A stretch of 64,000 nucleotides of DNA, taken from Candidatus Alcyoniella australis (GTDB taxonomy: Bacteria; Lernaellota; Lernaellaia; JAVCCG01; Alcyoniellaceae). The stretch is taken from the NCBI GenBank assembly GCA_030765605.1, contig JAVCCG010000133.1, positions 12,086 through 76,085 on the forward strand. Direction: 5' to 3'. Shown here piece after piece: positions 10,169 to 63,745 of this stretch. Every line of letters begins with the position of its first letter. The first letter of the stretch is position 1. The notes under the pieces were generated by a model. That model had not been told where the DNA came from. It ran no database searches and was given only the letters and a program-made list of their open reading frames with translations. The translations under genes were made by a program, and so were the position numbers.

Positions 10169-10262
10169 GCCTGTTTCCTCCATTTATGAGTCGATTTTAA
10201 TCATTGTACCGCGCCGGCGAGCTGTCAACAGAAAACAGGCGCGGCGCTTAATCGTTTGGGGA

Positions 10263-19379: not shown

Positions 19380-19523
19380 ATTGAGCAACAATATTCCCAC
19401 AATATTTCAGGATAGTTGTCGGGCTTGACTTGGGCGCGTGTCTCTGCTAATTTTTGGCGCGTTTCAGGCACCCCGCCGCCCGCTGAAATACGTATGATAA
19501 CCACTAGAGTTTAAGACAGCATT

Positions 19524-20099: not shown

Positions 20100-20110
20100 G
20101 GGACGCGCGC

Positions 20111-32857: not shown

Positions 32858-34195
<1,338 letters not shown>

Positions 34196-34300
34196 CGTTT
34201 GGCTCCCAGGAAAACGGGTCGTCTATTTTTCTATTATAGCATCTCTGGACGATGATTCGTGGGTGACCGTTGTGACTTGGTCGGTTTTCCGAGGTAAAAT

Positions 34301-37023: not shown

Positions 37024-37032
37024 GGGGAACGG

Positions 37033-38322
37033 ATGAGCGACCGAGCATCGAAGATAAAGATCGCGCTGCTGTGCTTTGCCCTGCTGCTGGCCGCAGGCCT
37101 GGCTCTGGCCGACGTGCCACACAGCCGGACCCGCGACGTGCCGTACACCATCAACCAGTTCCCGTCGAGCTATGATCCCTGGGAGCAGTACGACGAGTCG
37201 TTGATGTATCAATGGGACACCTTTGCCAACGTGATGTATCCCGCCTCAAGCCCGCCGGGCACATTCGGGGCGGGCAATGGCAAGAACGAATACGCCGGGT
37301 TTCTGACCAACTCCCAGGTGGACTCGTACTATGGCTTCACCTGGGGCGGGGCCGCGGCCATGACCATTAGCTGGTGGGATCACACCGGACACATCTCGGA
37401 ATCGGACATCGCCTGGAACGCGCACCTGAATTGGACAACCGATATCGAGGATTACCTGGAAGACTCCTCGATTTTGCCCTATCAGCTGGCCACGATCCAC
37501 GAGCTGGGGCACACCTTCGGCCTGGACGACTACGACTATGACAAGTCCGATGATAAGTCGGTCGGCTACGAGACCGTGATGAACTACTCACACCCCTGGC
37601 ACAACTACGCTCTGGGATTGGACGATGGCCAGACCGTGCAGAAGATGTACCCCAGCCGCCAGAATACGGTGCACGACCTCGGAATTTACGACTTCCACTG
37701 CACCAGCCAGTTCTCCTGCCCGGACGCGAGCAAGTCCACCGGCTCGGTGGCCTGCGGCCGCTCGTTCGAGATCGACGGCATACAGATCGCCAACCTGGGC
37801 AATTACAGCGAGTCCAACGTCTCGGCCACGTTCTATCTTTCCGAGGACATCAATATCAGCTCCTCGGACGTGAAACTGGGCACGATCAGCTTCGGCAGCC
37901 TGGCCAGCCGCTCGCGCAGTATCGTCGATGTGGAGTTGACGGTCCCCTCCGACACTGACATCGACACCTACTACGTGGGCGCGATCATCTCCGGCGCTTC
38001 GGGTGACGCGCTGTCGGAGAACAACTCGATGTTTCTGCCCGGGCAGATCAGGGTCACCTCAAGCGGCGGCGGCGGTGGCGACGACGACGAGCCCAACGAC
38101 CCGCAGGACTGCGAACGCTTCTGCGAGGTGATAGATAGCTGCTCCCTGGCCTCGGAGATCGACGTTTCGTCCTGGGACGAGTGCGTGAACCTGTGCGAGA
38201 TCATTCGCCATTCGGTGCTCGAGTGCGTGCTCGATGCCACCTACTGCTCCGAGGTCGCGGACTGCATCGGTGCAGGCGACGACTCAAGCTCCGACGATGA
38301 GGAAGACGCCTGCTGCGGCTGA
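37033..38322 (+). CDS. Secreted metzincin-like zinc metalloprotease (HExxHxxGxxD, snapalysin-like) with C-terminal Cys-rich acidic module
   Basis: 'IHELGHTFGLDDYDYD' + Met-turn-like 'ETVMNYS'; middle CARDB-like beta domain; tail GGGGGDDDEPNDPQDCERFCEVIDSC...EEDACCG. Confidence 0.6.
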   Translation: MSDRASKIKIALLCFALLLAAGLALADVPHSRTRDVPYTINQFPSSYDPWEQYDESLMYQWDTFANVMYPASSPPGTFGAGNGKNEYAGFLTNSQVDSYYGFTWGGAAAMTISWWDHTGHISESDIAWNAHLNWTTDIEDYLEDSSILPYQLATIHELGHTFGLDDYDYDKSDDKSVGYETVMNYSHPWHNYALGLDDGQTVQKMYPSRQNTVHDLGIYDFHCTSQFSCPDASKSTGSVACGRSFEIDGIQIANLGNYSESNVSATFYLSEDINISSSDVKLGTISFGSLASRSRSIVDVELTVPSDTDIDTYYVGAIISGASGDALSENNSMFLPGQIRVTSSGGGGGDDDEPNDPQDCERFCEVIDSCSLASEIDVSSWDECVNLCEIIRHSVLECVLDATYCSEVADCIGAGDDSSSDDEEDACCG

Positions 38323-38464
38323 TTGATCTTCAGCCGTGGCGAGGAACGCCCCACGTACTATAGAATTATGGGTGTCCCCGAAACTTCGGATCTCTTCCCT
38401 TGAGCATGTCAGAATAAGGTGCTAAATTCTGACCTGTCGGAAGCGTGAACGAGGAGCGGGGCTT

Positions 38465-38752
38465 ATGAACCTGAAAGACGACGTTAGGCCGATCACCTAC
38501 CTAAAGAACAACACCGCGGAGTTGGTGCGGGACGTTTCGCAGGACGGCCGAACCGTGCTGATTACGCAGAACGGCGAGGCCAAGGTCGTGGTGATGGACG
38601 TGGATACCTACTCCCGTTGGCGCAATGCCCTGGCGCTGATGAAGATGATCTCCCAGGGCGAGGCTGATGTTGACGCGGGCCGGGTGCTGACCCAGGACGA
38701 GGCGTTCGCAAGGGCGGAAAGGACAATCGAGCGGGCCACCGCCGATGAGTGA
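38465..38752 (+). CDS. Phd/YefM-family type II antitoxin
   Basis: 'RPITYLKNNTAELVRDVSQDGRTVLITQNGEAKVVVMDVDTY' is the canonical Phd/YefM N-terminal fold pattern. Confidence 0.75.
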   Translation: MNLKDDVRPITYLKNNTAELVRDVSQDGRTVLITQNGEAKVVVMDVDTYSRWRNALALMKMISQGEADVDAGRVLTQDEAFARAERTIERATADE

Positions 38753-39092
38753 GCGTAAATATAAAGTGCTCTGGGCTGAAAGCGGAGCACGCGACCTGGA
38801 GGAGATCGTCCTGCACATCGCCCAGGACTCTCCGGGCAACGCGCGCAAAGGACTCAAACGGCTGAGGGACAAGGCCGCGGCCCTGGAGACTCTTCCCCTG
38901 CGCGGTCGGGTCGTGCCCGAGCTGGCCCGCCTGGGCCTGCGCTCCTGGCGCGAGCTGATGTTGAAACCCTATCGCATTGTCTATCGCGTTGATTCCCAAA
39001 CCGTGCTGGTCCTGGCGCTCATCGACTCCCGCCGCGACCTGGAAGACCTGCTGCTCGAACGCATGGTAAGACCGGCAGATTTACAGTTATAA
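38745..39092 (+). CDS. parE: ParE/RelE-family type II toxin
   Basis: 115 aa, overlaps antitoxin by 8 nt, ParE-like 'ARDLEEIVLHIAQDSP...PELARLGLRSWREL...YRIVYRVD' pattern. Confidence 0.7.
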   Translation: MSERKYKVLWAESGARDLEEIVLHIAQDSPGNARKGLKRLRDKAAALETLPLRGRVVPELARLGLRSWRELMLKPYRIVYRVDSQTVLVLALIDSRRDLEDLLLERMVRPADLQL

Positions 39093-39385
39093 CGTCCGGT
39101 AGATTAATCGTTTGATATCAATCGCTTTCCGTCATCCTGAAACGGAGGCGAAGGATCTACGCGCGCATGGTGAATTTTGTTGTAACCAGGAGAGGGAAAA
39201 TTGAGGGCTCATCCCTACCACTCCGTCTGGAAATCCAATCCGAAAACACGAATGAGATTAAACATGATGGCTTCTAAAGATGGTTTATTTTATAATAATA
39301 TCAGTGTGGGTAGCCACGAATAGAAGACTCGCTGTAAGTAATTTGATTTACCTTATAGGTTAATCAAACTTGACAAAGGCTTCCT

Positions 39386-39727
39386 ATGGAAATAATATAT
39401 AAGTCGAAAAAGCTAGAAAATGCTTTCATGAAAAGGAAACAAGGCGTGCAGGAGTGGGGTGATCAAAACGCAAAGAAACTATTCCTGAGGCATACACAAC
39501 TACAAGCTGCTGACAACCTGGCAATTTTCAGCACATTACCCGCAACTGGCTTCGAACAATTGAGAGGCGACCGAAAAACTCAGTTCGCCTGTTACGGGAA
39601 ACACCCCTTCCGGCTCATTTTCGAAGCAGCCCATGATCCGGTACCTAGACAATCAGATGGTGGTGTGGACTTGGTTTTAGTGACAAGAATCCGAATCATT
39701 GAGGTGGTCGACTATCATGGCGACTGA
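39386..39727 (+). CDS. higB: HigB-like toxin (plasmid-maintenance-system killer family)
   Basis: 113 aa; N-terminal 'IIYKSKKLENAF' and C-terminal '...LRGDRKTQFACYGKHPFRLIFEA...IIEVVDYHGD' resemble the HigB/plasmid-killer family; low-GC (~45 %) context. Confidence 0.6.
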   Translation: MEIIYKSKKLENAFMKRKQGVQEWGDQNAKKLFLRHTQLQAADNLAIFSTLPATGFEQLRGDRKTQFACYGKHPFRLIFEAAHDPVPRQSDGGVDLVLVTRIRIIEVVDYHGD

Positions 39728-40817
39728 ACGACAAAAAAAAGCCAAACCCGACTATGCGATTCCTCCTGGAGAAACGCTGTCTGAAACGCTCCATGCCTTG
39801 GGTATGACCCAGAAGGAATTTGCGATCAGAACGGGGCTTTCGGAAAAACATATAGTGTCCATTCTTCAAGGCAACGCTCCGATAACGCCTGAAACTGCAT
39901 TGAAATTTGAAACGGTTCTGGGAGTTCACGCTAGCTTTTGGAACAACCTTGAGAGAAATTACAGAGACACCCTAGCCCGATTGGAGAAAGAGAAACGACT
40001 TCAGCAGGATATCGCATGGCTCGACAATATTCCTGTTGCCACAATTGTTAAGCATGGATGGATTAAAAAAAACAAAGAAAAATCTATGAAACTTCAAGAG
40101 GTTCTCTCATTTTATGGCGTCTCGTCGCCAAAGGAATGGGATAAGCTTTGGGCAAATGTCCGTTTCGCCGCGAGGCAAAGTAAGGCTTTTGAAACTGACC
40201 CCGGTGCAGTATCCGCATGGATGCGGATTGGTGAGCTTCGTGCGCAAGATATTGCCTGTCAACCATATAACCATGACCGGTTCCGTGAGGTTTTAGGGGA
40301 AGTCCGAGATTTAACTGTAAGAAGTGCAAGAGACTTTCAGCCGAGAATAATCCAATGGTGCGCAGAGGCCGGCGTAGCTGTCGTTTTTGTAAAAGAGCTC
40401 CCGAGAATACGCCTAAATGGTATTACTCGCTGGCTAAACCCCAACAAGGCGTTAATCCAGCTCTGCCTACGTCACAAAAGCAACGCCCAGTTATGGTTTA
40501 CTTTCTTCCACGAGGCCGGGCATATCCTTAAGCATGGGAAAAGAGACCTTTTTTTGGAGAACGATGAATACCAAGATAGTCAAAAAGAAAAGGAGGCAGA
40601 TAAATTTGCCTCCGATTTTTTAATTCCACCTCGTGAATGGGACTCTTTTTTATCCGAACACATCGATTGCTCTTACTCTAGGGATGATATTAAAACGTTC
40701 GCAGCAAGGGTCGGCATTGCACCGGGGATCGTTGTCGGTAGGCTTCAGCACGAGAGGCTTATTCGTTATTCTCATTGCAATGACTTGAAGGTTAAGCTGG
40801 TCTGGAGTTCCAACTAA
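39717..40817 (+). CDS. higA: HigA-like antitoxin: XRE-family HTH fused to ImmA/IrrE (COG2856) HExxH metallopeptidase domain
   Basis: N-terminal 'LGMTQKEFAIRTGLSEKHIVSILQG' HTH_XRE; C-terminal 'WFTFFHEAGHILKH' HExxH of DUF955/COG2856; 11-nt overlap with higB. Confidence 0.7.
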   Translation: MATERQKKAKPDYAIPPGETLSETLHALGMTQKEFAIRTGLSEKHIVSILQGNAPITPETALKFETVLGVHASFWNNLERNYRDTLARLEKEKRLQQDIAWLDNIPVATIVKHGWIKKNKEKSMKLQEVLSFYGVSSPKEWDKLWANVRFAARQSKAFETDPGAVSAWMRIGELRAQDIACQPYNHDRFREVLGEVRDLTVRSARDFQPRIIQWCAEAGVAVVFVKELPRIRLNGITRWLNPNKALIQLCLRHKSNAQLWFTFFHEAGHILKHGKRDLFLENDEYQDSQKEKEADKFASDFLIPPREWDSFLSEHIDCSYSRDDIKTFAARVGIAPGIVVGRLQHERLIRYSHCNDLKVKLVWSSN

Positions 40818-40820
40818 TAA

Positions 40821-41795
40821 TCAAGGCCCTTCCGAGCTTCCGCGGGTTTTATCGGGTTCGGCGGGTTGGGGCAGGCCGGGTTCATAGAGGGTGATGGTCA
40901 GGCCGTCGCGGTCGCGGGCGCCGATCACGTATTTGCGCAGGCGAGGCCAGATTTGGTCCATGGTCTGGTAATAAAGTCGGGTGTAGGCGTTGCGGCGGTC
41001 GGTTCCGACCTCAGCGGCGAGCAGTTTGAAGCGTTCGGCCTCGCCCGTGGCGCGGTTGACGCGTTCTTGCTGGTAGGTCTCGCCCTCGCTACGGGCGCGG
41101 TTGGCCTCGGCGCGGGCCCGGGGCATGGCCTGGTTGGCGTAGCCGTCGGCCTCGTTGATCAGGCGACTGCGGTCCTCGCGGGCGCTGGAGACCTCGTTGA
41201 ACGAGGCGGCCACCCCGCGCGGGTTGATGATCTGATCGACCTGCATCGAGCTGATGCTCAGGCCGCTGGAATAGGCGTCCATGTCGGCCTGGATGTCGCG
41301 CATCACCTCGGCGGCGATGATCGACTTATCGGTGGTCAGGGCGTCGTCTACGGCCATGGCGGCCAGTCGGCGCGTGACCGCGGCCTCGCCGCTGATGCGC
41401 ACCAGCTCGTGGGGATCAAAGGTGTTGAGCAGGAACGCAGCCGGGTCGTTGATCGTGTAGCGCACCACGAGCATCACCACGATCCAGTTGCGGTCGCCGG
41501 TGAGGAACTGGCGTTGGAATACGCCCGCGATGTCCGAGACTTGTTCCTGGCCGACCTCGAAGCCGATGCCGCGCTGTTTGAGGTCGGTGACGTTGGGCCG
41601 GTCCACGCGCTCAACGGGCCAGGGCAGGTGGTAGTGGATGCCCGGCGGCACGCGGTTTTCGGTCACCGCGCCGAAGCGCCGCACCACGCCCTGCTGGTTG
41701 TAATCCACGATGTACAGGCCCGAGGCCAGGTAGATCAGCAGCAGCGCGGCCGCGCATAGCAGCGAGAGCAGGCGTAGCCGGCGGCTTTGGGCCAC
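40821..41795 (-). CDS. SPFH/band-7 domain protein (HflK/HflC-like paralogue)
   Basis: N-terminal TM, SPFH domain, C-terminal coiled coil. Confidence 0.7.
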   Translation of the reverse strand: MAQSRRLRLLSLLCAAALLLIYLASGLYIVDYNQQGVVRRFGAVTENRVPPGIHYHLPWPVERVDRPNVTDLKQRGIGFEVGQEQVSDIAGVFQRQFLTGDRNWIVVMLVVRYTINDPAAFLLNTFDPHELVRISGEAAVTRRLAAMAVDDALTTDKSIIAAEVMRDIQADMDAYSSGLSISSMQVDQIINPRGVAASFNEVSSAREDRSRLINEADGYANQAMPRARAEANRARSEGETYQQERVNRATGEAERFKLLAAEVGTDRRNAYTRLYYQTMDQIWPRLRKYVIGARDRDGLTITLYEPGLPQPAEPDKTRGSSEGP

Positions 41796-41796
41796 G

Positions 41797-42741
41797 TTAG
41801 TCGACCTTTCCCGAGACCAGTAGCTTGAGCACCTCGGCGTCGGAATCGAGCACTATCACGGTCTGTTCGTCGAGGAACTTGCGGTAGCTCTCCAGGGTGC
41901 GCGTCAGCTTGTACAGTTCGGGGTCCGAGCTGTAGGCCTCGGCGTAAATCCGGGCCGCAACCGCGTCGCCCTCGCCCTTGGTCTGCTCGGCGTCGCGATA
42001 GGCCTCGGTGAGAATCCGGCTGACCTCTTTGTCGGTCTCGGCCTTGATCTTCTCGGCCTCCTCTTCGCCCTCGGCGCGGTACTTTTTGGCAATGCGCTGG
42101 CGCTCGGAGCGCATCCGGCGGTAGACCGAGGCGCGCGTGCCCTCGGGGAAGCCGAAGCGCCGCAGGCCGACGTCGACGACCTCCACCCCCAGCTCCTCGC
42201 GGGCCGCGGATCGGCAGCGCTCGGTTGCGACCTGCATGATCTGCTCGATCTGCACGCCGTCGGGCTCAACCGAGAGCAGGACGGAGAGCTCTGACTTGCC
42301 CAGCACGTCGCTGACCTCGCTGAGCAGCATCGAGCTTAAGCGCACCTCGGCCGTGCGCCGGTCCTTGACCGTGCGGATGAACAGTCGCGGATCGGCGATG
42401 CGCCAGCAGGCGTAGGCCTCGTAGACCAGCGGTTTTTTATCTTGGGTCAGCACCTCGGCCGGCCGCGCGTCGAGCACCATCAGCCGCGCGTCAAAGCGGT
42501 GCACCGACTGGATCGGGTCGGGCCACTTGAAGTACAGCCCGGGCTTGTCCAGCACGCGCACCGGGTCGCCCAGGAACGTCAGCAGCCCCAGCTCGGACTG
42601 GTCGATGGTGAACAGCATGTTGTTCAACAGCAGGAAGCAGATGATCAGCAGGCCGACCACGATCAGCCAGGTCCGGGCAGCCCCCGCGGTCGCCGCTGCC
42701 GGGCCGGGGTCGGGCCCGCTGTTTGTCGCATCGTGGCTCAT
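41797..42741 (-). CDS. SPFH/band-7 protein, HflC-like
   Basis: TM + SPFH + charged coiled-coil (RAEGEEEAEKIKAETDKE...) typical of HflC. Confidence 0.7.
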   Translation of the reverse strand: MSHDATNSGPDPGPAAATAGAARTWLIVVGLLIICFLLLNNMLFTIDQSELGLLTFLGDPVRVLDKPGLYFKWPDPIQSVHRFDARLMVLDARPAEVLTQDKKPLVYEAYACWRIADPRLFIRTVKDRRTAEVRLSSMLLSEVSDVLGKSELSVLLSVEPDGVQIEQIMQVATERCRSAAREELGVEVVDVGLRRFGFPEGTRASVYRRMRSERQRIAKKYRAEGEEEAEKIKAETDKEVSRILTEAYRDAEQTKGEGDAVAARIYAEAYSSDPELYKLTRTLESYRKFLDEQTVIVLDSDAEVLKLLVSGKVD

Positions 42742-44453
42742 CGTGTCCTCCTCTGGCCATCGGGCTCGGTCATGCGCAAATCGATTGCACCGGGGCTTAG
42801 GTGCGAGGGCACGATCACCTTGCGCCGCCCGGCCAGTGCCGCCTCAAGGGTCTCGAGGGTCAGTCGGTATTCGTGCAGCCGCCGCTGTCCGCGGATCGCC
42901 GCGGCAAGTTGGGTGAAGCGCGAGGCCTCGCCCCCAGCGCGCATGGTCGTGCTGGCGCGGTAGCCCTCGGAGTCGAACAGGATGCGCACCGCATCGCCGC
43001 GGGCGCGGGCGATTTTCTCGTTGTTGTAGCCCTGGGCGTCGTTGATCGCTTTCTCTTTGTCCTCGAGGGCCGAGTAGACTTCGCGGAAGTCCTCGACCAC
43101 CTGCACCGGCGGATGCACGTCCTGCAAATAGACCGCGAGGATCGACAGGCCGGTGCCCATGGCCGTCAGACGGCATTGGGCGCGCGCGGCCACGGCCTGC
43201 TCCACGTCGCGGCGTTCCCAGATCAGCGCCTGCTCGAAGTTGAGTCCGGCGACCTCGCCGTGCAGCGCCGACTCCACTGCCGCGGTCACCATCCGCTCGA
43301 TGTCGGCCACTCCCAGCAGCGCCGCCGCCGGGTCGGAGAGGCTGTACTGCACCACGAGGTTGACGTCGAGCATGTTCTCGTCGCCGGTGAGCACCAGCGC
43401 CTCGTCGATCTTCTTTTGGTAGACCCCTGCGGTGTGCAGGCTATCCCACTCGTAGTTCGAGCGCAGGCGTACCGTGCTTACCGGACCCTGGGGCAGGCTG
43501 CGGAAGCCGACCTCGAGTTGGCGTACCCGTTGCGGCTCCACGGTGATCACGCGCTCAATGGGCGCCGGGGCCAGCCAGTGCAGTCCGGGCTGTAGCGGCT
43601 GGCCTTGCAGGCCGCCCCAGCGCAGCCGCAGGCCGACCTGGTCCGGGCCGACCATGGTCAGTCCGCTGAGCACCCACAGCACGAGCACCAGTAGCGCCGT
43701 GCAGGCCAGCAGCCCGCGCCGACGGACGGCCACCCGTTCCCAGAGGCGTTCGCCGACCAGCTTGCGGCCGACCAGCCCCAGGAAGCCGTAACGCCGATGC
43801 TGCTCAGCCCCGTGTTTGGAGCGGGTCAGCAGGCCCAGCAGCGCACCGATTCCCACGTCAAGGCCGATGCCCGCGACCAACACCACGATCAGCGCGGCCA
43901 CCGGCCGATCGAGCCGCAGTCCGATCACCTGGCCCATCAGCGCTAAAATCACGGCCAGCGAGGTCATTACGTCCATGCTGGTATGGCGGCTGTCCGCGGT
44001 CAGCGAGGGCGAGCCGGTCTCGCGTCCGGCGCGCGCCTGATAGCGCGCCAAGCCCCAGTTGATCAGCGCGAAGCAAAAGGTGGCCACAATCGCTGCGGGC
44101 AGCCATTCGCCGCGCACTTGCAGCGAGGGGCGGCCGATCATCAGGCCGATGCGCAGGGCCGCGCCGAGAATCATCAGCGAGATCAGCAGCGCCACCAGGT
44201 TTTCGATCAGCACCGCTTGGCTTGGACGACGCTCGCCCAGCCGTACGCCGACCAGCACCATTGCCGAGACCACCATGTCCGAGAGGCTGTGCAGCGCGTC
44301 GGCGACCATCGCCATGCTGCCCACCAGCAGGCCAAAAAGCGCCTCGCCAAGCACCAGCAGCAAGTTCACCGCGATGCTCACCTTGGCCACGCGGGCGCGG
44401 CGCGGCGCATCCGTAGTCTGTGGCTGCTGTTGCGTCGGGTGGCTCGTTGACAT
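42738..44453 (-). CDS. Fusion protein: cation-diffusion-facilitator (CDF) transmembrane domain + HflK-like SPFH domain
   Basis: N-terminal 6-TM region with CDF TM2 motif 'GSMAMVADALHSLSD' and TM5 'RHTSMD'; then extra TM and SPFH domain ('VGPDQVGLRLRWGG...'); 571 aa. Confidence 0.65.
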   Translation of the reverse strand: MSTSHPTQQQPQTTDAPRRARVAKVSIAVNLLLVLGEALFGLLVGSMAMVADALHSLSDMVVSAMVLVGVRLGERRPSQAVLIENLVALLISLMILGAALRIGLMIGRPSLQVRGEWLPAAIVATFCFALINWGLARYQARAGRETGSPSLTADSRHTSMDVMTSLAVILALMGQVIGLRLDRPVAALIVVLVAGIGLDVGIGALLGLLTRSKHGAEQHRRYGFLGLVGRKLVGERLWERVAVRRRGLLACTALLVLVLWVLSGLTMVGPDQVGLRLRWGGLQGQPLQPGLHWLAPAPIERVITVEPQRVRQLEVGFRSLPQGPVSTVRLRSNYEWDSLHTAGVYQKKIDEALVLTGDENMLDVNLVVQYSLSDPAAALLGVADIERMVTAAVESALHGEVAGLNFEQALIWERRDVEQAVAARAQCRLTAMGTGLSILAVYLQDVHPPVQVVEDFREVYSALEDKEKAINDAQGYNNEKIARARGDAVRILFDSEGYRASTTMRAGGEASRFTQLAAAIRGQRRLHEYRLTLETLEAALAGRRKVIVPSHLSPGAIDLRMTEPDGQRRTR

Positions 44454-44523: not shown

Positions 44524-45570
44524 CTATTTAACGCTGATGGCTCCAGGTTCGCCGTCAATGATTTTGCCGACAACCCAGCCGGGGAACGGCCCTTGCGCGA
44601 GCCCTTCGAGCATCTTTTCGGCGTTGCCCGGCGGCAGTGCGGCCAGCAGTCCGCCCGAGGTCTGGGCGTCGGCCGCCAGCATCAGCAGGTCCGGGTCGGC
44701 TCCGGGCAGACGGATCAGGCCGGGTTCGACGTACTTAAGGTTGGCGTGGGTGCCGCCGGGGATCAGCCCCTCGCGGATGAGCTCGAGCACGCCGGGCATT
44801 TGCGGCAGGGACGCGAGATCGATTTGCGCGGCCACGCCCGAGGCGTTGCACATCTCCCACAGGTGGCCCAGCAGGCCGAAGCCCGTGACGTCGGTCAGCG
44901 AGTGCACGTCCGCGGCGATCGCCGCGCGCATCCCTTGCTCGTTGAGCAGGCAGGCGGATTGCACCAGCGCGTCGATCTGTTGCGGCTGCGCGGACTCGGC
45001 CTTGATTGCCGTGGCGATCAACCCGGTTCCCAGGGGTTTAGTTAATACCAGCACGTCGCCGGGACGCGCCGTGGCGTTGGTCAGCACGCGATCGGGGTGC
45101 ACCAGGCCGACCACGGCCAGGCCGTACTTGGGTTCGGGATCGTCCACGGTGTGGCCGCCGAGCACCATGCAGTGCGCCTCGGCTGCGGCGTCGTACCCGC
45201 CGCGTAAAATCGCCGCGACCAGCTCGTCGGGCAGCTTGCCTTGGGGAATCGACAGCAGGTTCAGCGCGGCGAACGGTTCGCCGCCCATGGCGTAGACGTC
45301 GGAGAGCGCGTTGACCGCGGCAATGCGGCCGAACAGGTAGGGGTCATCGACGATCGGCGTGAAGAAGTCGGTGGTCAGCACCAGGGCGCGCTCGTCATCG
45401 AGGCGCACCACCGCGGCGTCGTCAGGCACGGCCGTGCCGACGATGATCCGCGCGTCCTGCGGTACGGGCAGGTGCTTCAGTATCTTTTGCAGCGCTCCCG
45501 GCGCCAGCTTACAGGCTCAGCCTGCGCCGTGAGAAAGCTGCGTGAGCTTGATCCGCTCCATCCGCTCCAT
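44524..45570 (-). CDS. selD: Selenide, water dikinase (selenophosphate synthetase) SelD, selenocysteine-containing (in-frame TGA near 45517-45519)
   Basis: ORF-track ORF (44524..45429) lacks the SelD N-terminus; upstream in frame reads MERMERIKLTQLSHGAG-U(TGA)-ACKLAPGALQKILKHLPVPQDARIIVGTAV-PDDAAVV..., matching E. coli '[26 protein letters not shown]' with Sec at the Cys17 position. Confidence 0.75.
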
Positions 45571-45592
45571 CCGCTCCGATTGGTTGTTGCGT

Positions 45593-47707
45593 CTATGCGA
45601 CGGGGATGATCCTGGCGTCTACCGCCAGCACCCCCTTGCCCTTGGGATACACCCGCAACGGGTTGATGTCCATCTCGCTGATCCAGGGCTGCTCCGCGGC
45701 CAGTATCGAGAGCTTGACCAGCGTCTGCTCCAGGGCGGCCAGGTCGGACGGGCCGCGGCCGCGCGTGCCGTGGAGGATCTTGGAGCCGCGCAGTTGCTCG
45801 ACCATACTGCGCGCCTCGGCGCGGTCGAAAGGCGCCACGCGCAGCACCGTGTCGCCGAGCACCTCGGTGTAAATCCCGCCCCAGCCGAGCATCACGATCG
45901 GACCGAAGTCGTTATCCTGCTTGAATCCCAGGATCAGCTCCAGGCCCTGGTCCGCGTATTTTTGCACCAGCGCGCCGCGGATTTGGGCTCGGGGGTAGGC
46001 CGTGTTGATCGCAGCCATCATTTTGTCCCAGCCCTCGCGCACCTCGGCCACGGTGCGCAGGTCGAGCAGCACGCCGCCGCAATCGCTCTTGTGGGTCACG
46101 TCCGGGCTCTCGACCTTAAGCGCCACGGGCAGGCCGATCTCGCGCGCGGCCTTGACCGCGCCTCCCACGGACGTGGCCAGCTTGCCGCGGATCGCCGGGA
46201 TGGCGTAGGCCTCGAGCACCTCCAACGCCTGGCGGTTCAGCGATGCCTGGCCGCGCGTGGACTCGCGGATCGCGTCCACGCGCTCAAGGTCGCGCCCCTT
46301 GATCTTGGGCACGCGGTACGCGCCGCAGCGCTGCTGCAGATTGACGTGGTTGTCGCGGCTGATCGCCAGGGCGCGCACCGCCTCCTCGGGCGTGGTGAAG
46401 ATCGGGAAGTCGAACATCTCCTTGAGCCGCCGCGCCTCGGAGTGCCAGGAGATCAGTCCCATGGCCACCGGCTTGTTGTGCTTGCGGTTGAGCTCGGCCA
46501 GGAAGCTGATCATCTCCTCGGGGATGCGCGGGTCGTAGCGGCTGATGTAAGTGAACAGGAAGCAGATCGCGTCGAACTGCGGACGCGAGACCACGTCGGC
46601 CAGGATGTGCTTGTAGGCATCCAGGTCGTACAGGTCGCCCAGGTCCATCGGGTTGTCCAGCTTGATTACCTTAGCGCGCAGCTTCTCCTCGGCGTTGGCG
46701 ATCACTTCGCGCGGGAACGGCGGCAGCTCGAAGCCGAACTTTTCGCAGTGGTCTGCGGCTATAATCGCGTGGCCGCCCGAGCGGCTGATGATCGCCAGCC
46801 GGTTGCCCTTCATTGCCGGCAGCGAGAGCGCCTTGGCCGCGTCGATCATCTGGTTGATCTCGTCGCAGCGCAGGGCGCCGGCCTGCTTGATCGCCGCGTC
46901 GACCACCGCGTCGTCGCTGACCATCGCGCTGGTGTGGCTGGCCGCGATCTTCTGCGCGGCCCGGCCGATGTTCGACTTGTGCACGATGATCGGCTTGCGG
47001 GCCTTGCGCATTTCGAGGAAGAACTCGCGGCCGCGGCTGAAGCCCTCGAGGTAGACGCAGATCGTATGCGTCTGCTCGTCGCGCAGCAGCACCGGCAGCA
47101 GGTCGACCTCGTCGACGTCGAGCTTGTTGCCCAGCGAGGCGAACTTGGCCATGCCCACGTGCTCTTTGAGAAACTCCTGGATGTAGGAAATGCCCACGCC
47201 GCCGGACTGCGAGAGCACCGAGACGTGCCCTTTGAACATCTGCGGCATGGTCGGGAAGGGCACGCACAGGCCGTTGTCCATGTTGATCACGCCGATGCCG
47301 TTGGGCCCGACAAAGCGCATGCCGTAGTCCTGCGCGATCTGGGCCGCGCGATCGGCGAGCAGCGCGCCCTTGCGGCCGTACTCGGAGAATCCCGCCGACT
47401 GCACGTAGGCGAACTTGACGCCGTGGCGGCCGCACTGTTCGAGGATGTCGGGTAGCGTATGCGCCGGGGTGAGGATCGCGGCCGCGTCCAGCGGTGCCGG
47501 AACGTCGGACACGTTGCGGTAGATCTTCATTCCGAACACCACGCCGCCCGAGCGCCCGACCGGATAGATCTCGCCGGTGAAGCCCATGGTCAGCAGGTTT
47601 TCGACGATGCCGCGGGCCAGGTTGGTCTTGCGCGGACTGACGCCGATCACTGCCAGGCGTTGGGGATTGAAAAGGTTGTCCAGGGGCTCGGCTGCGCGTG
47701 CAGTCAT
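45593..47707 (-). CDS. Acyl-CoA synthetase (NDP-forming), fused alpha/beta subunits (acetate--CoA ligase [ADP-forming] family)
   Basis: 704 aa; N-terminal CoA-binding Rossmann (NPQRLAVIGVS), succinyl-CoA-synthetase-like His loop, C-terminal ATP-grasp. Confidence 0.75.
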   Translation of the reverse strand: MTARAAEPLDNLFNPQRLAVIGVSPRKTNLARGIVENLLTMGFTGEIYPVGRSGGVVFGMKIYRNVSDVPAPLDAAAILTPAHTLPDILEQCGRHGVKFAYVQSAGFSEYGRKGALLADRAAQIAQDYGMRFVGPNGIGVINMDNGLCVPFPTMPQMFKGHVSVLSQSGGVGISYIQEFLKEHVGMAKFASLGNKLDVDEVDLLPVLLRDEQTHTICVYLEGFSRGREFFLEMRKARKPIIVHKSNIGRAAQKIAASHTSAMVSDDAVVDAAIKQAGALRCDEINQMIDAAKALSLPAMKGNRLAIISRSGGHAIIAADHCEKFGFELPPFPREVIANAEEKLRAKVIKLDNPMDLGDLYDLDAYKHILADVVSRPQFDAICFLFTYISRYDPRIPEEMISFLAELNRKHNKPVAMGLISWHSEARRLKEMFDFPIFTTPEEAVRALAISRDNHVNLQQRCGAYRVPKIKGRDLERVDAIRESTRGQASLNRQALEVLEAYAIPAIRGKLATSVGGAVKAAREIGLPVALKVESPDVTHKSDCGGVLLDLRTVAEVREGWDKMMAAINTAYPRAQIRGALVQKYADQGLELILGFKQDNDFGPIVMLGWGGIYTEVLGDTVLRVAPFDRAEARSMVEQLRGSKILHGTRGRGPSDLAALEQTLVKLSILAAEQPWISEMDINPLRVYPKGKGVLAVDARIIPVA

Positions 47708-48350: not shown

Positions 48351-51185
48351 TCATAGCGGCGGCGGCGAGACAGCCCGCATCTTTACATCCGAGGGCAGCA
48401 CCAGCAGTCCGCCGAGCATGCTGATGTCGGACTGTCCGCTGATCAGCACCTCCATTCGGCCGTCGTCGTTGAAGAACATCCGGCCGGTTTGCTCCAGGGC
48501 CAGCTCGTGCTCGAGTAGCGCGTTGAGGATTCCGTTGCGCACCGTGAAGTAGGTCATCATCGAGATGTTCATCTGCGGCAGACCGTCGTCGGCCTCGACC
48601 ACCGGGGCCATACCGGTCTGGAAAACGTCGATGGTGATCGGACCCATGCCCACGGGCCCGGGATCGCCCGGCGACTTGTCGTCGTCGTCCATCGTCAGGC
48701 CCATTGAGGTGGAGGTGGCGTAGAGCACGATGCCGCTGGAGAGCGAGATGTCCAGGTACGGCTCGCCGTCGCGGTCGTAGGCCAGCCCCCTGACGAACGA
48801 GACCATCTCGCCGCTGACGTAGCTGGGCCAGACGATCAAGGCGGAGAGGATCTCAATTTGATTCTCGGGCGTGGGCGTTTCGGTGTCGTCGAAGAAGCCG
48901 TTGCCGTCGGTGTCGGAGATCGGGTCGGCGTGTAAAAACAGCTCGACGTCGGCCGTGGGCTCGACCGCGGTGAAGTCCAGGCGGTAGTCCTCGCCGCCGG
49001 GCTCCAGGTCGTTGTCCGTGTCGAGCTGCGCGCTGCCGTAGGAACGGATTTCCTCGCTGAGCTGCAGGCGGTAGCGCCGCCCGGGGGTCAGCGGCTCGTC
49101 GGGGATGATCACCAGCTTGCGCCAGTCGACCACGCTGGTGGCGTTCACCAGGGTGCCCGCGTCGATGTCGTAGAGCAGTACGGTGTCGCCGTAGTACATC
49201 GTTTCGCGGTTCATCACCTGGGTGAAGAACACCGTGGGCCACAGGTTGCACGGGTAGGTCGAGCCGTACTCGTTGGGCACGTCCATGGTCCCCAGCTTGG
49301 GCGGCCAGTACGACCAGGCGGCCGCGTTGGTCGAGAACGTCGTGCCCCAACGCTCGGTCAGGGCGTTGCCCGCCAAGTCGCAAAGTCCGGGTTCGGCGAA
49401 CACGCCGTAGGCGGAGGAGGGCTCAAGCGGCTCGATCGGCCGCAGCGCGACCTTGGCGCCGTCCACGCTCACCGCGCAGGGCACCTGCTCTTCGTCCGCG
49501 TTGTAGAGCTTGACGAACTCGATGGTCGTCGGGTCGAGCGCCTCGTTGAAAAAGACGATCACCGGCGACTCGACCGGCACCAGCTTGGACGACTGCTGCG
49601 GCAGGCTCGAGAGCGCCTGCGGCGGCGTGCGGTCGGCCTTGCGCTGCGGCGTGCCGGGGTAGGGAATCTGGTAGAGCGAGATCGTGGTCGGGATCGACTC
49701 GCCGGCCAGCTTGAGCTCGGAGTAGCCCATCAGCTCGAGCACCATCTCGCCGTCCTCGCGCACGTAGCTCACGCCCACCAGTTCGACCCCCAGGATCTGC
49801 TGGGTCATGTTCGAGTTGGCGGTCGGATCCTCGGCCGTGAGCGAGATGTCCATCACCAGGGTCAGCGCGGGAAGCACCTCGGTGTTGCCAACATAGTCGC
49901 GGCTGTCGCGCAAATAGCCCGACACGTCGCTGAGCATCTCGATGGTCAGCGGGCCGGTGACCAGCCCGGCGGGAATCTTGCCGCCGAGCATCGCGCTCAT
50001 GCTGCTGGTGATCAGTTTTTCGCCGGCGCGGATCGTCAGCGGAATCTGCGAGAAGTCGCCGGTCTCGCCCAGCTCGCTGAACAGCGCGCCGCCCACGTAC
50101 AACACGGACTCGCCCAGCAGTTTGCTGTCGGCGATCATCGTGTTCGCCGGACGGCCGGTCAGCGGGCTCAGCGGCATGTCTTCCGGGTCGAGGGCCTCGT
50201 GCAGGTCGCCGTCCGCGGCCGAGGGCCAGGCGTCGGTGATCAGCCGGCGTCGCGGCTCAGTGCTTTGCGGGTAGAAGCTCCAGACGAACGCCTGCTGCAA
50301 CCCCGCGCCGTTCAGATCGTGGATCGCGGCAACGGCCACATCGTCATCGTCGTCGTCATCATCGTCGTCGGCCTTGGATGATTCATCGTCGTCGGCGTCC
50401 GGGTACTCGAAGGGGTCGGCCTCGATGGTCAGCTCGTAGGGCAGCTTCGGGTTGAGGTCGTCGAGCGGATCGATCACCACCAGGTTGCCCTGCACAAAGA
50501 CCCGCGCTGCCACCAGCTCGCCGGGCTCGTCCGCCGGACCCTCGTCCTGTTGGTCGTCGTCATCATCATCGTCGGCCTTGGCGTCTTCGCCGGCCACGCG
50601 CAGATGCACGCTTTGGCCGTAGATCACGCTTTGGGCAACGATGGGCTCGGAAAACGCAATGCGGAAGGTCGAGATGTCCAGCACCTCGTCCTGGGCCGGG
50701 TTGGTGTAGGCGACAGTGGGGAAGGCGCTGGAGTCGGGCCGGTCGGGCTTGGTCTGGAACACGATCTGCTGGATCTTACCGTCCATCAGCGGCGCGCGTC
50801 CCTGGAAGTCGCGCACGCCGTTGCGCAGTCGCACGCGGTAGCTCTGGTTGCCGCGCAGGGGGACCAGCGGAGTCAGTTCCACCGAGCTGCGGTGTAGGGT
50901 CAGCTTGTGGTCCACGGACTCGGTGCCGCCGCGCTCGAGCAGCCGCACAAAGCTCACCTGCCCCTCGACGGTCGCCGGGTCGATCGGCGCGGAGAACGCC
51001 AGGTGCACCCGGGCATGCACCGGCACCTGCTGCATCCCCTGATAGGGGTAGGCCGCGAGCAGGGTGAAGTTGTCGATCTTTGAAGTCTCGAGCCCGGCGT
51101 CGTCGTCCTTTTCGGAGCAGGCGGCGAACAGGGCCAAAGACACAATCAGCAAGATGCAGATCAATCCGCGCTGATACATCGCCAA
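48351..51185 (-). CDS. Large surface lipoprotein with bacterial Ig-like domains and poly-Asp tracts
   Basis: Signal peptide + LFAACS lipobox; repeated Ig-like (SbsA/BIG-type) segments; DDDDDDQQDE and DDDESSKADDDDDDDDDD tracts; immediately downstream of FadL-family gene. Confidence 0.6.
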   Translation of the reverse strand: MAMYQRGLICILLIVSLALFAACSEKDDDAGLETSKIDNFTLLAAYPYQGMQQVPVHARVHLAFSAPIDPATVEGQVSFVRLLERGGTESVDHKLTLHRSSVELTPLVPLRGNQSYRVRLRNGVRDFQGRAPLMDGKIQQIVFQTKPDRPDSSAFPTVAYTNPAQDEVLDISTFRIAFSEPIVAQSVIYGQSVHLRVAGEDAKADDDDDDDQQDEGPADEPGELVAARVFVQGNLVVIDPLDDLNPKLPYELTIEADPFEYPDADDDESSKADDDDDDDDDDVAVAAIHDLNGAGLQQAFVWSFYPQSTEPRRRLITDAWPSAADGDLHEALDPEDMPLSPLTGRPANTMIADSKLLGESVLYVGGALFSELGETGDFSQIPLTIRAGEKLITSSMSAMLGGKIPAGLVTGPLTIEMLSDVSGYLRDSRDYVGNTEVLPALTLVMDISLTAEDPTANSNMTQQILGVELVGVSYVREDGEMVLELMGYSELKLAGESIPTTISLYQIPYPGTPQRKADRTPPQALSSLPQQSSKLVPVESPVIVFFNEALDPTTIEFVKLYNADEEQVPCAVSVDGAKVALRPIEPLEPSSAYGVFAEPGLCDLAGNALTERWGTTFSTNAAAWSYWPPKLGTMDVPNEYGSTYPCNLWPTVFFTQVMNRETMYYGDTVLLYDIDAGTLVNATSVVDWRKLVIIPDEPLTPGRRYRLQLSEEIRSYGSAQLDTDNDLEPGGEDYRLDFTAVEPTADVELFLHADPISDTDGNGFFDDTETPTPENQIEILSALIVWPSYVSGEMVSFVRGLAYDRDGEPYLDISLSSGIVLYATSTSMGLTMDDDDKSPGDPGPVGMGPITIDVFQTGMAPVVEADDGLPQMNISMMTYFTVRNGILNALLEHELALEQTGRMFFNDDGRMEVLISGQSDISMLGGLLVLPSDVKMRAVSPPPL

Positions 51186-51189
51186 CCTC

Positions 51190-52479
51190 CTAGAAGCCGA
51201 AGGAGAAGGTCAGTGCGCCGGTGTGGACTGTGCCCTCGCTCTGGAATTTGTAGCCGTCCGAGGTCTTGGTGGTCCGCGGAACCAGGTAGTGGAACTGGTA
51301 GGCCAGGTCGACCTTGATCGGCTGATTGAGCTTGGGAACGTCGATCCAACTGAAGCCGTATCCCAGGGAGGCGGCGTGCTTGTCGTTGTCCACGATCACG
51401 AAGCCCAACACGTTGGGCATGTCCTCGTAGGGCCGGTAGGTGCCGATGCCGTCCACTGGGGTCATGTCGTAGAAGTAGCCCGCGCGCAGGGTGTGGGCCT
51501 CGCTGATGTTCCACTCGATCCCTAGGCGCGGCACGAATGTGTCGCGGAAGTCGAACTGCGAATCGCGCCGGGCGTCGTCCTTCTCCTCGACGATGTCGAC
51601 AAAACGCGACCACTGGTGCCAGGTGAAGTCAAAGGCCAGCAGCAGCTCCGGGGAGATGTCGTAGGCCACGCCCAGGGCGACCTGCATCGGGATGAACGCG
51701 TCGCGGTAGCTCAGCTTGAGCGGCAGGGTCGCCAGCGGCGAGCCGCCCACCGTGGCCAGGGTGTCGGCGGTGATCGGTCCCATCTCGCCGAAGTTCTCCG
51801 CGCGCCAGGTCAGCCCGATGTTGATCGGCTCCAGCCGCACCAGCGCCGAGACGATCGGCGTGGGGTAGGTGTCGGAGCCCAGGCTCATCGATTCGTTGGT
51901 GGCGTTGCCGCCCAGGTCGGTGTTGACCGCCAAGGCCGTGCCGCCGTGAAGTTGCAATATAATTCCCGCGCCCAGGTTGAGCATCGGGATCACCTCGATC
52001 CCCGCGCCGGCGACGATCGCCGCGCTGGTCGAGCCGTAACGCAGAAACTGGCCGTCGTCCGAGCGCCGATCCTCAAAGCGGATGAACGCCTTGCCGTTCT
52101 CGTCGATGGTCAGTCCCAGGCCGAAGCCCAGGCCGCGGCCGCTGGTGAACAGCTTGTGCATGTCCAGGCTCATCCCCACGGTGACGACCTCGTTGGACGA
52201 GTCGAACTCCATCTTGCCGCCCGGACCCTCGCTGCTCAGGAACGGAGCGCCGTAGATGTAGCCCAGTCCCACGCGGCTGCTTTTGGGGATCGCCAGGCTG
52301 GCCGGGTTGAAGAACACCGCCCCCACGTCGTCGGTCACCGCGGTCAACGCGTTGGCCATGCCCACACCGCGCGCCGAGAGGCCGTAGGTGTTGGGAACGT
52401 AACTCAGCCCGGCCACGGCCGAAGTGGCCATGACGAACAAAGCCGCCGCACAGATCAGCAAGCAAATCCGAATTCTCAC
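51190..52479 (-). CDS. FadL/TodX-family outer-membrane hydrophobic-compound transporter
   Basis: Signal peptide; 'FFNPASL' NPA motif; C-terminal ...LTFSFGF beta-barrel signature. Confidence 0.7.
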   Translation of the reverse strand: MRIRICLLICAAALFVMATSAVAGLSYVPNTYGLSARGVGMANALTAVTDDVGAVFFNPASLAIPKSSRVGLGYIYGAPFLSSEGPGGKMEFDSSNEVVTVGMSLDMHKLFTSGRGLGFGLGLTIDENGKAFIRFEDRRSDDGQFLRYGSTSAAIVAGAGIEVIPMLNLGAGIILQLHGGTALAVNTDLGGNATNESMSLGSDTYPTPIVSALVRLEPINIGLTWRAENFGEMGPITADTLATVGGSPLATLPLKLSYRDAFIPMQVALGVAYDISPELLLAFDFTWHQWSRFVDIVEEKDDARRDSQFDFRDTFVPRLGIEWNISEAHTLRAGYFYDMTPVDGIGTYRPYEDMPNVLGFVIVDNDKHAASLGYGFSWIDVPKLNQPIKVDLAYQFHYLVPRTTKTSDGYKFQSEGTVHTGALTFSFGF

Positions 52480-61839: not shown

Positions 61840-63222
61840 CTAATTAAAAAAGGCGATGGAGATTCCCTCTGAGCGCGAGGGCCAATTGCGCACGGCCAGG
61901 GGGCGACCGCTGAACTCGAAGTTCGTCGCGGCCTGCTGGTCGCCGGCCACACGCATGTCGAAAACGCGGATGAACGGCACCATGTCAAACGGGAATCCGG
62001 CCATTGTCAGGTCGCTGACGCCGTTGAAGTTGGAGTCGATGAATCCCACAACGATGGTCGAGGCCTGCGGATCACCGATGGGCGTGGCCGCGAGGTCCAA
62101 TCCGTTGACCAGCAGCGTGTCGCGGCCCGCGACCAGCGAGCGGTTGAGGTTGAGGTAGGCGACCAAGGCCAACTCGTCGTCAAAGGGGATCAGCCGGAAC
62201 ACGTACCCAAGGAAGCTCTCCGGTCCGGGGAATGAGCGGAAGTGGACCTTGTCGCTGGAACGCACGAACGGCTCGCGGTAGTAGTGCACCGGCGGCAACT
62301 CCGGGTCGGGGTCGATGTAGACGAACTCGTAATAGGCCTCGGGCTCGGCAATCAGCTCGCCCCAATATCCGTTGTCGTCGACCTGAAATACGGCCAGCGG
62401 CTGCTCGCTGTAACGCATCGCGTTCGCCGGATCGACCTGATAGACACGCAGTTCGATGCCCGCTTTGGGCAGGTTCTCGCCCAGGGTCAACACGCGACCC
62501 GCGAGGCGGATCGGGCTGTGCGGCTCGATTTGGGTGGTGCGCGGCTCACGGTCGTTGAAGAAGCGATAAATCTCGTCAAACGTCTGGGCCGAGGTCGCCA
62601 GTTGCAGATGATCCAGGCCAGGCAGAACCACATTTTGCGCACCCTCGATCTGGGTGACGCCGCCGATGATGTAGTCGTCGGGCGATGAGATGTTGAGCGT
62701 ATCGACCAGCGCGGGGAAGTCCTGGTAGGGGAGCGCGGCAAGGTTGGCGTAGTGTGCCACCAGCGCCGGATTGCCGGGCCGCGAGAGGAACTCGTGACAC
62801 AGGTAGCCGCCCATCGAGTGCCCCAGCAGGTCGATCTGCTGCGCGCCGCTACGTTGCATCACCTCGGCTACGAAGCCCTCGAGGCGCAGGGTTTCGTACT
62901 TCACATCGCCCAGGGTGTTCCAGTCGAAGCTGTGGATTTGCTCCGGGCAGTAGCCGTTGGTGGTCAGGCGCTGTGTCTGGGTGTGGAACGCGTCGCCGTT
63001 CTCGATTAATCCGTGGGCAAAGACGATGGGCAGCAGCGTATCGTCGCACTCGGGCTGACCGTCGTCGTCGCCATCGTCGTCGTTGCCGGAATCATCGTCG
63101 TCCTGCGGGTCCTGGTCGTCATCATCGTCGTTGGAATCGCAGGCTGTAAGCGCACAGCACAGCAGCACGAATATCAAAACGGCAAGCAGGGCTGCGGTCG
63201 GACTACGCATGATCTTCTCCAT
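61840..63222 (-). CDS. Lipoprotein alpha/beta-hydrolase (lipase/esterase-like) with poly-Asp linker
   Basis: Signal peptide + LTAC lipobox then DSNDDDDDQDPQDDDDSGNDDDGDDDG; 'GHSMGG' nucleophile elbow. Confidence 0.65.
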   Translation of the reverse strand: MEKIMRSPTAALLAVLIFVLLCCALTACDSNDDDDDQDPQDDDDSGNDDDGDDDGQPECDDTLLPIVFAHGLIENGDAFHTQTQRLTTNGYCPEQIHSFDWNTLGDVKYETLRLEGFVAEVMQRSGAQQIDLLGHSMGGYLCHEFLSRPGNPALVAHYANLAALPYQDFPALVDTLNISSPDDYIIGGVTQIEGAQNVVLPGLDHLQLATSAQTFDEIYRFFNDREPRTTQIEPHSPIRLAGRVLTLGENLPKAGIELRVYQVDPANAMRYSEQPLAVFQVDDNGYWGELIAEPEAYYEFVYIDPDPELPPVHYYREPFVRSSDKVHFRSFPGPESFLGYVFRLIPFDDELALVAYLNLNRSLVAGRDTLLVNGLDLAATPIGDPQASTIVVGFIDSNFNGVSDLTMAGFPFDMVPFIRVFDMRVAGDQQAATNFEFSGRPLAVRNWPSRSEGISIAFFN

Positions 63223-63232
63223 TGCCGATTGC

Positions 63233-63745
63233 TCAGTCGAGCAGGTAGACCTCCACGCGATATTTGAGATGCTGCCCCTTGTGCTTATCGGCGTTCATCG
63301 GCCTGCCGTGTACGAACAGCAGGGTGCTCGGCGGAAAGCCTCCCTCGGGAGCGACGTCGAGTACGAGCGGGCCTTTTTTCGATACGATCCTTTCGCCGTA
63401 GACCTTGCCGCGATGGGGGCAAAATCCGCTGCCCACGCTCAGCTCGATCTCCCAGGGCTCGCCCTGGTCCGGCTGCTCCCAGTTGATCACGGCGATCACG
63501 CGGCCAAAGCCGTCGGCGTCGCTGTTCCAATGGTGCTTAATGTCGATCTCTTGGCTGCCGTCGTAATCCGCGGCGATCAGGAAGGACCCCGAGCCGCCCT
63601 CTTCGAGCACGACCGGATCGAGCCCGGCGATCAGCGCCGCCACATCGGCCACGCTGGACGCTTCGTCATTCTGTTCCGCAGCGGCCGCGCTTGCGCACAG
63701 CGCAAAGACCATCAGGATCGACAGCAGGGTTCGGACGGATCTCAT
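63233..63745 (-). CDS. Secreted hypothetical protein
   Basis: Start at Met25 of ORF-track frame (MRSVRTLLSILMVFALCASAAAA signal peptide). Confidence 0.45.
   Translation of the reverse strand: MRSVRTLLSILMVFALCASAAAAEQNDEASSVADVAALIAGLDPVVLEEGGSGSFLIAADYDGSQEIDIKHHWNSDADGFGRVIAVINWEQPDQGEPWEIELSVGSGFCPHRGKVYGERIVSKKGPLVLDVAPEGGFPPSTLLFVHGRPMNADKHKGQHLKYRVEVYLLD

Follow-up and report, generated by a model that had tools for sequence, protein, structure and literature searches.

SelD is a common selenoprotein (PMC1794560, PMC13188914), and SelD and FdhA are the most widespread selenoproteins of bacteria (PMC1794560). Selenocysteine (Sec) serves as the catalytic residue of the SelD N-terminal loop (PMC13188914), and eukaryotic SEPHS2 and archaeal SPS, which belong to the same family, carry Sec at the homologous position of that loop (PMC4561486). 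Here we describe a selD gene of Candidatus Alcyoniella australis, located in a stretch of 64,000 nucleotides (nt) of contig JAVCCG010000133.1 (assembly GCA_030765605.1, positions 12,086 to 76,085 of the forward strand), which is referred to below as the window. The active-site codon of this gene is an in-frame UGA, and it very probably specifies Sec.

The insertion of Sec in bacteria is associated with a selenocysteine insertion sequence (SECIS), a hairpin following the UGA. In the fdhF gene of E. coli the minimal SECIS is 17 nt long (nt 15-31) and lies 11 nt from the UGA (PMC8659212), while bacterial SECIS elements as a whole are too diverse to be described by one model (PMC13188914).

Ca. 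Alcyoniella australis, a member of the candidate phylum Ca. Lernaellota, is a strict anaerobe of the anoxic zone of Ace Lake, equipped with a periplasmic FdhAB and most of the Wood-Ljungdahl pathway (PMC9324843). The words ‘selenocysteine’ and ‘SelD’ are absent from the main text of that paper, in which three matches to ‘selen’ include titles of cited references.

Identification of a complete selD gene

Judging by sequence comparison, the reverse-strand segment 44524-45570 is an intact selD gene, encoding selenide, water dikinase (selenophosphate synthetase). The coordinates of this gene and of the other features discussed below are collected in Table 1. Translated in the selD frame, the segment reads MERMERIKLTQLSHGAG-TGA-ACKLAPGALQKILKHLPVPQDARIIVGTAVPDDAAVV..., and this TGA is the sole stop within the 348 codons, which contain no frameshifts. 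The frame is closed on the 5' side by the TAG of the neighbouring gene (45595-45593), and since this TAG lies in frame, the open reading frame (ORF) cannot reach further upstream.

For the protein searches Cys was placed at the TGA position of the 348-amino acid (aa) product. The product scored 392.4 bits against TIGR00476, the selD equivalog model (cut-off 125), with residues 8-314 aligned to positions 1-308 of the 311 in the profile, and 376.9 bits against NF002098 (cut-off 299). E. coli SelD (PDB 3u0o) could be aligned over residues 6-338 (E=2.8e-80). This alignment matches the TGA (residue 18) with Cys17, Cys20 with Cys19 and Lys21 with Lys20, with S-H-G-A-G-(TGA)-A-C-K standing opposite S-H-G-A-G-C-G-C-K, so the catalytic loop is complete only if the TGA is read through. 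The two-domain, PurM-like architecture (PF00586, AIRS, and PF02769, AIRS_C) was available as a precomputed result for a protein identical to the truncated 301-aa product (see below), and solved SelD structures align over both of these domains.

The gene is shortened in both available annotations. The mechanical ORF list begins it at a GTG and yields a 301-aa product identical to P0001, a protein of an ENA assembly. The part lying between the selD ATG and this start reads MERMERIKLTQLSHGAG-TGA-ACKLAPGALQKILKHLPVPQDARIIVGTAV, and is followed by PDDAAVV. The GenBank protein MDP8257316.1 comprises 327 codons, which together with the stop amount to 984 nt and map to 44524-45507; it lacks Sec18, Lys21 and the rest of the catalytic loop. 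Both products (301 aa from GTG 45429 and 327 aa from CTG 45507) are too short because the UGA was taken as a stop. As the segment located 5' of the start in the ORF list matches the SelD profile at positions 1-45 and also the E. coli enzyme, the 47 residues dropped by the ORF caller constitute a genuine, conserved part of SelD which includes the catalytic loop. This alignment, and the recurrence of the same TGA in many homologues (see below), make the upstream reading more than a matter of chance. The preliminary description of this DNA had already proposed that a start at PDDAAVV omits the catalytic N-terminus and that the upstream segment matches E. coli SelD with the TGA at Cys17; both proposals are borne out by the profile and the 3u0o alignments, the latter agreeing also in the Cys19 and Lys20 columns. 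The truncation of SelD in the public record and in the ORF list is thus a matter of annotation to be corrected, and not a new biological system.

The 5' end of the gene overlaps a perfect tandem repeat of three 9-nt units (Tandem Repeats Finder: period 9, 3.0 copies, 100% matches), which places a Shine-Dalgarno-like GGAG motif before each of the two in-frame ATG codons (45570 and 45561). The closest distinct orthologue (L001; see below), whose protein starts with MTDKIKLT, does not have this triplication, and we therefore consider it a recent, in-frame event.

Table 1. Positions of the selD gene, its elements and other features of the window (numbering of the window; +1 denotes the U of the UGA)
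Feature	Position	Strand	Remarks
Full-length selD coding sequence	44524..45570	(-)	348 codons including Sec18, plus stop; ATG 45570-45568 to TAG 44526-44524
Alternative in-frame ATG of selD	45561-45559	(-)	product then 345 aa
In-frame TGA, proposed Sec codon	45519-45517	(-)	codon/residue 18; homologous to Cys17 of E. coli SelD
AAG, Lys21 codon	45508..45510	(-)	corresponds to the catalytic Lys20 in E. coli; lies upstream of the two annotated starts
Truncated ORF of the mechanical ORF list	44524..45429	(-)	GTG start, MPDDAAVV..., 301 aa, first 47 residues missing
Extent of GenBank MDP8257316.1	44524..45507	(-)	327 aa, MAPGALQK..., start CTG 45507-45505, four codons past the TGA
Exact tandem repeat, 9 nt x 3	45551..45577	(-)	GGAGCGGAT on the coding strand; encodes MERMER
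Candidate SECIS, 17-nt hairpin	45490..45506	(-)	+14..+30; starts 10 nt past the UGA
Carriers of the distal hairpin in other selD genes	+29..+47		L006, L011, L014-L018, L020, L024, L025, L029, L030, L039, L059, L061, L070, L071, L073, L074
Upstream neighbour, ADP-forming acetate-CoA ligase family gene	45596-47707	(-)	stop TAG 45595-45593; Pfam CoA_binding_2, Succ_CoA_lig, ATP-grasp_5
Gene directly downstream of selD	42738-44453	(-)	unusual fusion of cation diffusion facilitator (Cation_efflux) and SPFH/Band 7
Examples of genes with poly-Asp runs	9734-10183, 32858-34222, 37024-38322, 48351-51209, 61840-63294

Recurrence of the UGA among SelD homologues

To place the TGA in a wider frame, 80 SelD loci from GTDB species representatives were compiled from among the matches listed, and the N-terminus could be parsed in 60 of them. 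The column of the active-site residue was occupied by TGA in 28 of the 60 and by a Cys codon (TGC or TGT) in the other 32, while in all homologues parsed (62/62) it held either Cys or TGA. The IKLTxxSHGxG segment preceding the TGA is likewise conserved among the homologues. The best match in the scan of the GTDB genome collection with SelD, among the matches listed, was 54% identical. At this place SHGAGCACK is found in L084, the nearest Cys-type relative (60% identity). The idea that the Cys17 position is a Sec site in many bacterial SelD proteins is therefore well founded, given the 28 TGA-bearing GTDB homologues listed and the closest orthologue, described next.

A second assembly (L002, ENA ERZ27315835) contains DNA identical to that of the window, including the TGA. 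The closest distinct orthologue, L001, comes from ENA and has the same sequence as a JGI contig (L083); its protein is identical to that of the window in 229 of 346 aa (66%). Around the site it reads MTDKIKLTSMSHGSG-TGA-ACKLAPGALEDIL (i.e. MTDKIKLTSMSHGSG-TGA-ACKLAPGAL), with the TGA in the same column. Only 45% of the identical residues are specified by the same codon in the two genes. Synonymous sites have thus diverged considerably while the protein, including the part encoded before the TGA, has been kept, which argues against a pseudogene.

Taken together, these observations make us highly confident that the active-site residue of this SelD is selenocysteine encoded by the UGA, and that the gene is of the Sec type.

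A candidate SECIS downstream of the UGA

A hairpin of 17 nt follows the UGA. Its stem is formed by the pairs U14-G30, G15-U29, G16-C28, C17-G27, G18-C26 and C19-G25, and its apical loop by C20-G-G-G-A24 (CGGGA, 45500-45496); the GC-rich core, GGCGC CGGGA GCGCU, corresponds to +15..+29 (45505-45491). With the alternative outer pairs G12-C31 and C13-G30, which leave U14 bulged, the hairpin extends at most over 45508-45489. It is the minimum free energy (MFE) fold of the +9..+34 stretch. All constraints published for bacterial SECIS elements (PMC13188914) are satisfied, namely an apical loop of 3-9 nt (5 nt in the hairpin), an upper stem of >=4 base pairs (bp) (5-7 bp), a G within the first two nt of the loop (position 2 in the hairpin, with another G next to it), a distance from the UGA to the loop of 16-37 nt (16 nt) and an MFE no higher than -7.5 kcal/mol (-9.1 kcal/mol).

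A proximal hairpin with a CGGGN loop is common to the lineage of the window, two metagenome-assembled genomes (MAGs) of Clostridiales (L003, L004) and one of Anaerolineales (L065). When the window sequence, L001 and these three were given to RNAalifold de novo, the hairpin was the only consensus structure; with the window and L001 alone it was the principal helix, beside two shorter ones. In the five sequences 96.7% of the cells are paired, versus 33-53% when the partners are slid, and compensatory changes were found at pairs 17-27 (C-G to G-C) and 18-26 (G-C to U-A). The first nine codons past the TGA are the same in the window and L001 in seven cases, versus 43% elsewhere in the gene (binomial P=0.04), and the two codon differences fall at positions 9 and 24, both unpaired. 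In L084, the Cys-type relative, only three of the six hairpin pairs remain.

Several results speak against this hairpin as the SECIS or limit the evidence for it. The five sequences in which its covariation was assessed were picked after they had been seen to form it. Its energy is not better than that of dinucleotide shuffles (z = +0.7 to +1.6); single-sequence folds compared in this way gave z values from -0.55 to +1.6 and are uninformative in a GC-rich coding region. When the ACKLAPGALQK... stretch was recoded synonymously, 14% of the recodings with the codon usage of the window folded as well as the hairpin (1.2% with uniform codons), so that the L-A-P-G-A-L sequence in a GC-rich genome already accounts for much of the stem. 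Partition functions of longer stretches prefer an irregular helix (+20..+55), and the pairing probability of the hairpin is ~0.001 or less. Neither the scan of the window at Rfam gathering thresholds nor a permissive one (E<=10) of 45350-45650 detected a SECIS family; given the diversity of bacterial SECIS elements (see above), the missing match says little. Finally, the lineage of the window does not have the covarying distal hairpin found in most Sec-type selD genes (see below).

The permissive Rfam matches in 45350-45650 (snoRNA, miRNA, Pseudomonas P5) were dismissed as chance. A mini-hairpin, CAGGC-UGA-GCCUG (45511-45525, reverse strand), with a 5-bp stem and the UGA as a triloop, was also dropped, because it would sit inside the ribosome during decoding of the UGA. 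Its stem is kept in L001, in which the preceding codon differs (Ala, GCA, versus Ser, UCA), and probably results from the frequent use of GGC and GCC codons.

In view of the above, the +14..+30 hairpin appears, with moderate confidence, to be the most likely SECIS of this gene. The GC stem about 10 nt 3' of the UGA had been put forward as a candidate in the preliminary description, and that suggestion is supported: the stem is real, is the best SECIS candidate and agrees with the published constraints, with the caveat that its stability is unexceptional for the peptide and the codon usage.

SECIS diversity among Sec-type selD genes

A comparison of 21 other Sec-type selD genes revealed a different element over the A-Q-V-L codons, i.e. 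a hairpin of 8 bp (+29..+47, loop +37..+39) which covaries strongly; loci sharing it are listed in Table 1. In an alignment which included the window and L001, 90% of the cells pair in this register, with 27 double changes, and none of 500 shuffles scored as high. Its loop, GUN, often forms part of CAGGUC, and the hairpin is not conserved in Cys-type selD genes. One of its carriers, L061, is the plasmid pTM1 of Terrisporobacter mayombei (NZ_CP101638.1, 21.9 kb), in which a Sec-type selD has the TGA in the same column.

The strong covariation of the distal helix supports a second possibility, which we consider unlikely though worth weighing: Sec is inserted, and the role of the SECIS falls to the irregular helix at about +20..+55, with its apex at +33..+40, or to what is left, in degenerate form, of the +29..+47 hairpin. 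In both the window and L001 the MFE fold of the 60-nt stretch is the long helix, and it dominates the ensemble when folding starts from nt +13. However, the long helices of the two sequences are out of register and are not recovered by RNAalifold, and their apical loops begin with AA or AC, without the G that the published model requires within the first two nucleotides. In the +29..+47 register the window forms five of the eight pairs and L001 three.

The distribution of the two hairpins suggests SECIS turnover within one gene family. The lineage of the window is very sparsely sampled: a pattern scan of metagenomes with G-U-A-C-K-L-A-P-G-A-L, synonymous positions being left free, returned only L083 (the same as L001) and no further members of the lineage. 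We propose tentatively, and with somewhat more doubt than assurance, that this selD may be the first evidence of Sec decoding in Lernaellota, and that in its lineage a minimal 17-nt CGGGN-loop hairpin, at the shortest spacing allowed by the published model (16 nt), may take the place of the widespread +29..+47 hairpin. If this is true, a SECIS can be replaced inside a conserved coding region without loss of the Sec codon.

Other readings of the UGA

There is very little probability that the existing annotation is correct, i.e. that the TGA ends a 17-codon upstream ORF and SelD starts at CTG 45507 or GTG 45429, devoid of the N-terminal loop. Both automated annotations call the gene in this way, and no Sec machinery was seen in the 64-kb window. 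However, SelD would lose 17 to 47 residues which match the beginning of the SelD models and include the loop equivalent to Cys17/Lys20; the upstream segment and the TGA are kept in frame in the 66%-identical L001 despite extensive synonymous divergence; and neither the CTG nor the GTG has a Shine-Dalgarno-like motif in front of it, in contrast to the GGAG before both ATGs.

Similarly improbable is read-through of the UGA by means other than the Sec pathway, such as suppression by a near-cognate tRNA, a Cys-tRNA(Sec) or a reassignment of the codon to Trp or Gly, even though the window gives no clue to the decoding machinery. Among the predicted genes of the window, TGA is the terminal stop of 17 out of 44, so the standard code applies and the codon has not been reassigned. 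The strict alternation of Cys and TGA in the column (see above) is characteristic of an exchange between Sec and Cys. In the place of the catalytic nucleophile of SelD, Trp or Gly would not be expected to work.

The least credible explanation, that the TGA arose through an error of sequencing or assembly, or through a nonsense mutation of recent date, in a Cys-type gene or a pseudogene, might be entertained because the source is a MAG, in which single-base errors occur, but an error, named as a possible objection from the outset, is contradicted by the same TGA in the identical DNA of L002 (another ENA analysis) and in the orthologue of a different organism, present in both ENA and JGI data, as well as by the 28 GTDB genomes with TGA in this column and the absence of any other stop or frameshift in 348 codons.

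Returning to Sec as the encoded residue, the contents of the window count against it in several respects. Pfam scans of 40 predicted genes of the window revealed no selA, selB, selU or other selenium-related gene, ARAGORN and Rfam found no tRNA-Sec in the 64 kb, the only tRNA identified being tRNA-Lys, and two scans of the window for TGA-interrupted coding regions yielded no second selenoprotein gene. We infer the Sec-decoding trait of the organism from selD alone. The presence of selA, selB and selC elsewhere in the genome would follow logically from a Sec-type SelD. A TGA-split candidate at 26234 turned out to be two separate adjacent genes, a SHOCT-domain gene and an alanine racemase.

Proposed mechanism

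Based on these comparisons, we suggest the following course of Sec insertion at the UGA, with SelB binding to the +14..+30 hairpin. Translation would start at ATG 45570 or ATG 45561, each preceded by the GGAG derived from the 9-nt triplication. With the UGA in the A site, the 17-nt hairpin located 10 nt downstream (45506-45490, loop CGGGA) would be positioned at the mRNA entrance, where it could be bound by SelB-GTP-Sec-tRNA(Sec). SelB would then deliver Sec in place of termination by release factor 2, and the read-through product would be an enzyme of 348 or 345 aa with the selenium-binding loop S-H-G-A-G-U-A-C-K.

Genomic context of selD

The acetate-CoA ligase gene lying upstream (Table 1), whose product shows 100% identity to an NCBI protein of Ca. 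Alcyoniella australis, ends 22 nt 5' of the selD ATG. A promoter scan found no promoter-like site between the two, and they are probably co-transcribed. Past the Cation_efflux/SPFH fusion gene situated on the other side of selD there are two further SPFH genes (40821-42843) on the same strand as selD.

A lower-GC island (38426-40817) carries two toxin-antitoxin-like pairs: a Phd/YefM antitoxin gene and then a small ParE-like ORF, and a HigB-like ORF (39386-39727) and then an ORF of 372 aa (39699-40817), which is HTH/ImmA-like. The island looks like an inserted mobile segment.

The window also contains a complete Rnf cluster (19515-24714, forward strand) in the order rnfA-B-C-D-G-E. The gene filter based on GC content at third codon positions (GC3) missed rnfG and rnfE because they lie inside long, overlapping off-frame ORFs; both are visible in the ORF translations. 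Many of the predicted secreted proteins and lipoproteins have runs of 8 to 20 Asp residues after the signal peptide or at the C-terminus (examples in Table 1), a striking compositional habit of this organism.

Implications

The arrangement of a Sec-type selD is well known, indeed textbook material, and our understanding of selenium metabolism is unchanged by it. At the level of annotation, MDP8257316.1 should be re-annotated with a Sec translation exception. More generally, ORF callers working from stop to stop systematically remove the N-terminus of Sec-type selD. For the organism, a Sec-type SelD implies a Sec-decoding trait in Ca. Alcyoniella australis, and adds the candidate phylum Lernaellota to the probable users of Sec. 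Given such a trait, other genes of this genome, FdhA being the obvious candidate, may also be split or truncated at UGA codons.

Comparison with known systems

The SelD of the window shares with the E. coli enzyme (3U0O) the motifs SHGAG-x-x-CK, DDAAV, TTDFFxPIVD, NALSDxxAMGG, GGH(S/T)xDD, TKPLGxG, TDVTGFGLLGH and D(A/P)QTSGGLL. The difference lies in residue 17, which in E. coli is Cys, encoded by TGC where the window has TGA, and the E. coli selD thus needs no SECIS. Native SelD of Aquifex aeolicus presumably contains Sec; its structures (PDB 2ZOD/2YYE) align to the product described here over residues 5-338 (E=4.5e-65).

Human SEPHS1 aligns to this SelD as well (E about 1e-31). In SEPHS2 and archaeal SPS, however, the SECIS resides in the 3' untranslated region and is read by SBP2/EFSec-type factors, whereas the only candidate SECIS of the selD gene of the window is the in-frame hairpin directly after the UGA, as is typical of bacteria.

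The likeness to the SECIS of E. coli fdhF is one of geometry. Both elements are 17 nt long and occupy nearly the same place (+14..+30 here versus 15-31, i.e. 10 versus 11 nt from the UGA), and in both the apical loop is G-rich and carries G at positions 22 and 23. In one predicted fold there is also a U on the 5' side that may be bulged, U14 here and U17 in fdhF. On the other hand, the loop is GGUC in fdhF and CGGGA here, with no U after the G pair, and the stem sequences are unrelated.

The closest counterparts are the other Sec-type SelD proteins of bacteria, which constitute the second most widespread family of prokaryotic selenoproteins and have the UGA at the same position of the loop. 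Most of the sampled genes of this type carry the +29..+47 hairpin, whereas the lineage of the window has the proximal 17-nt hairpin instead.

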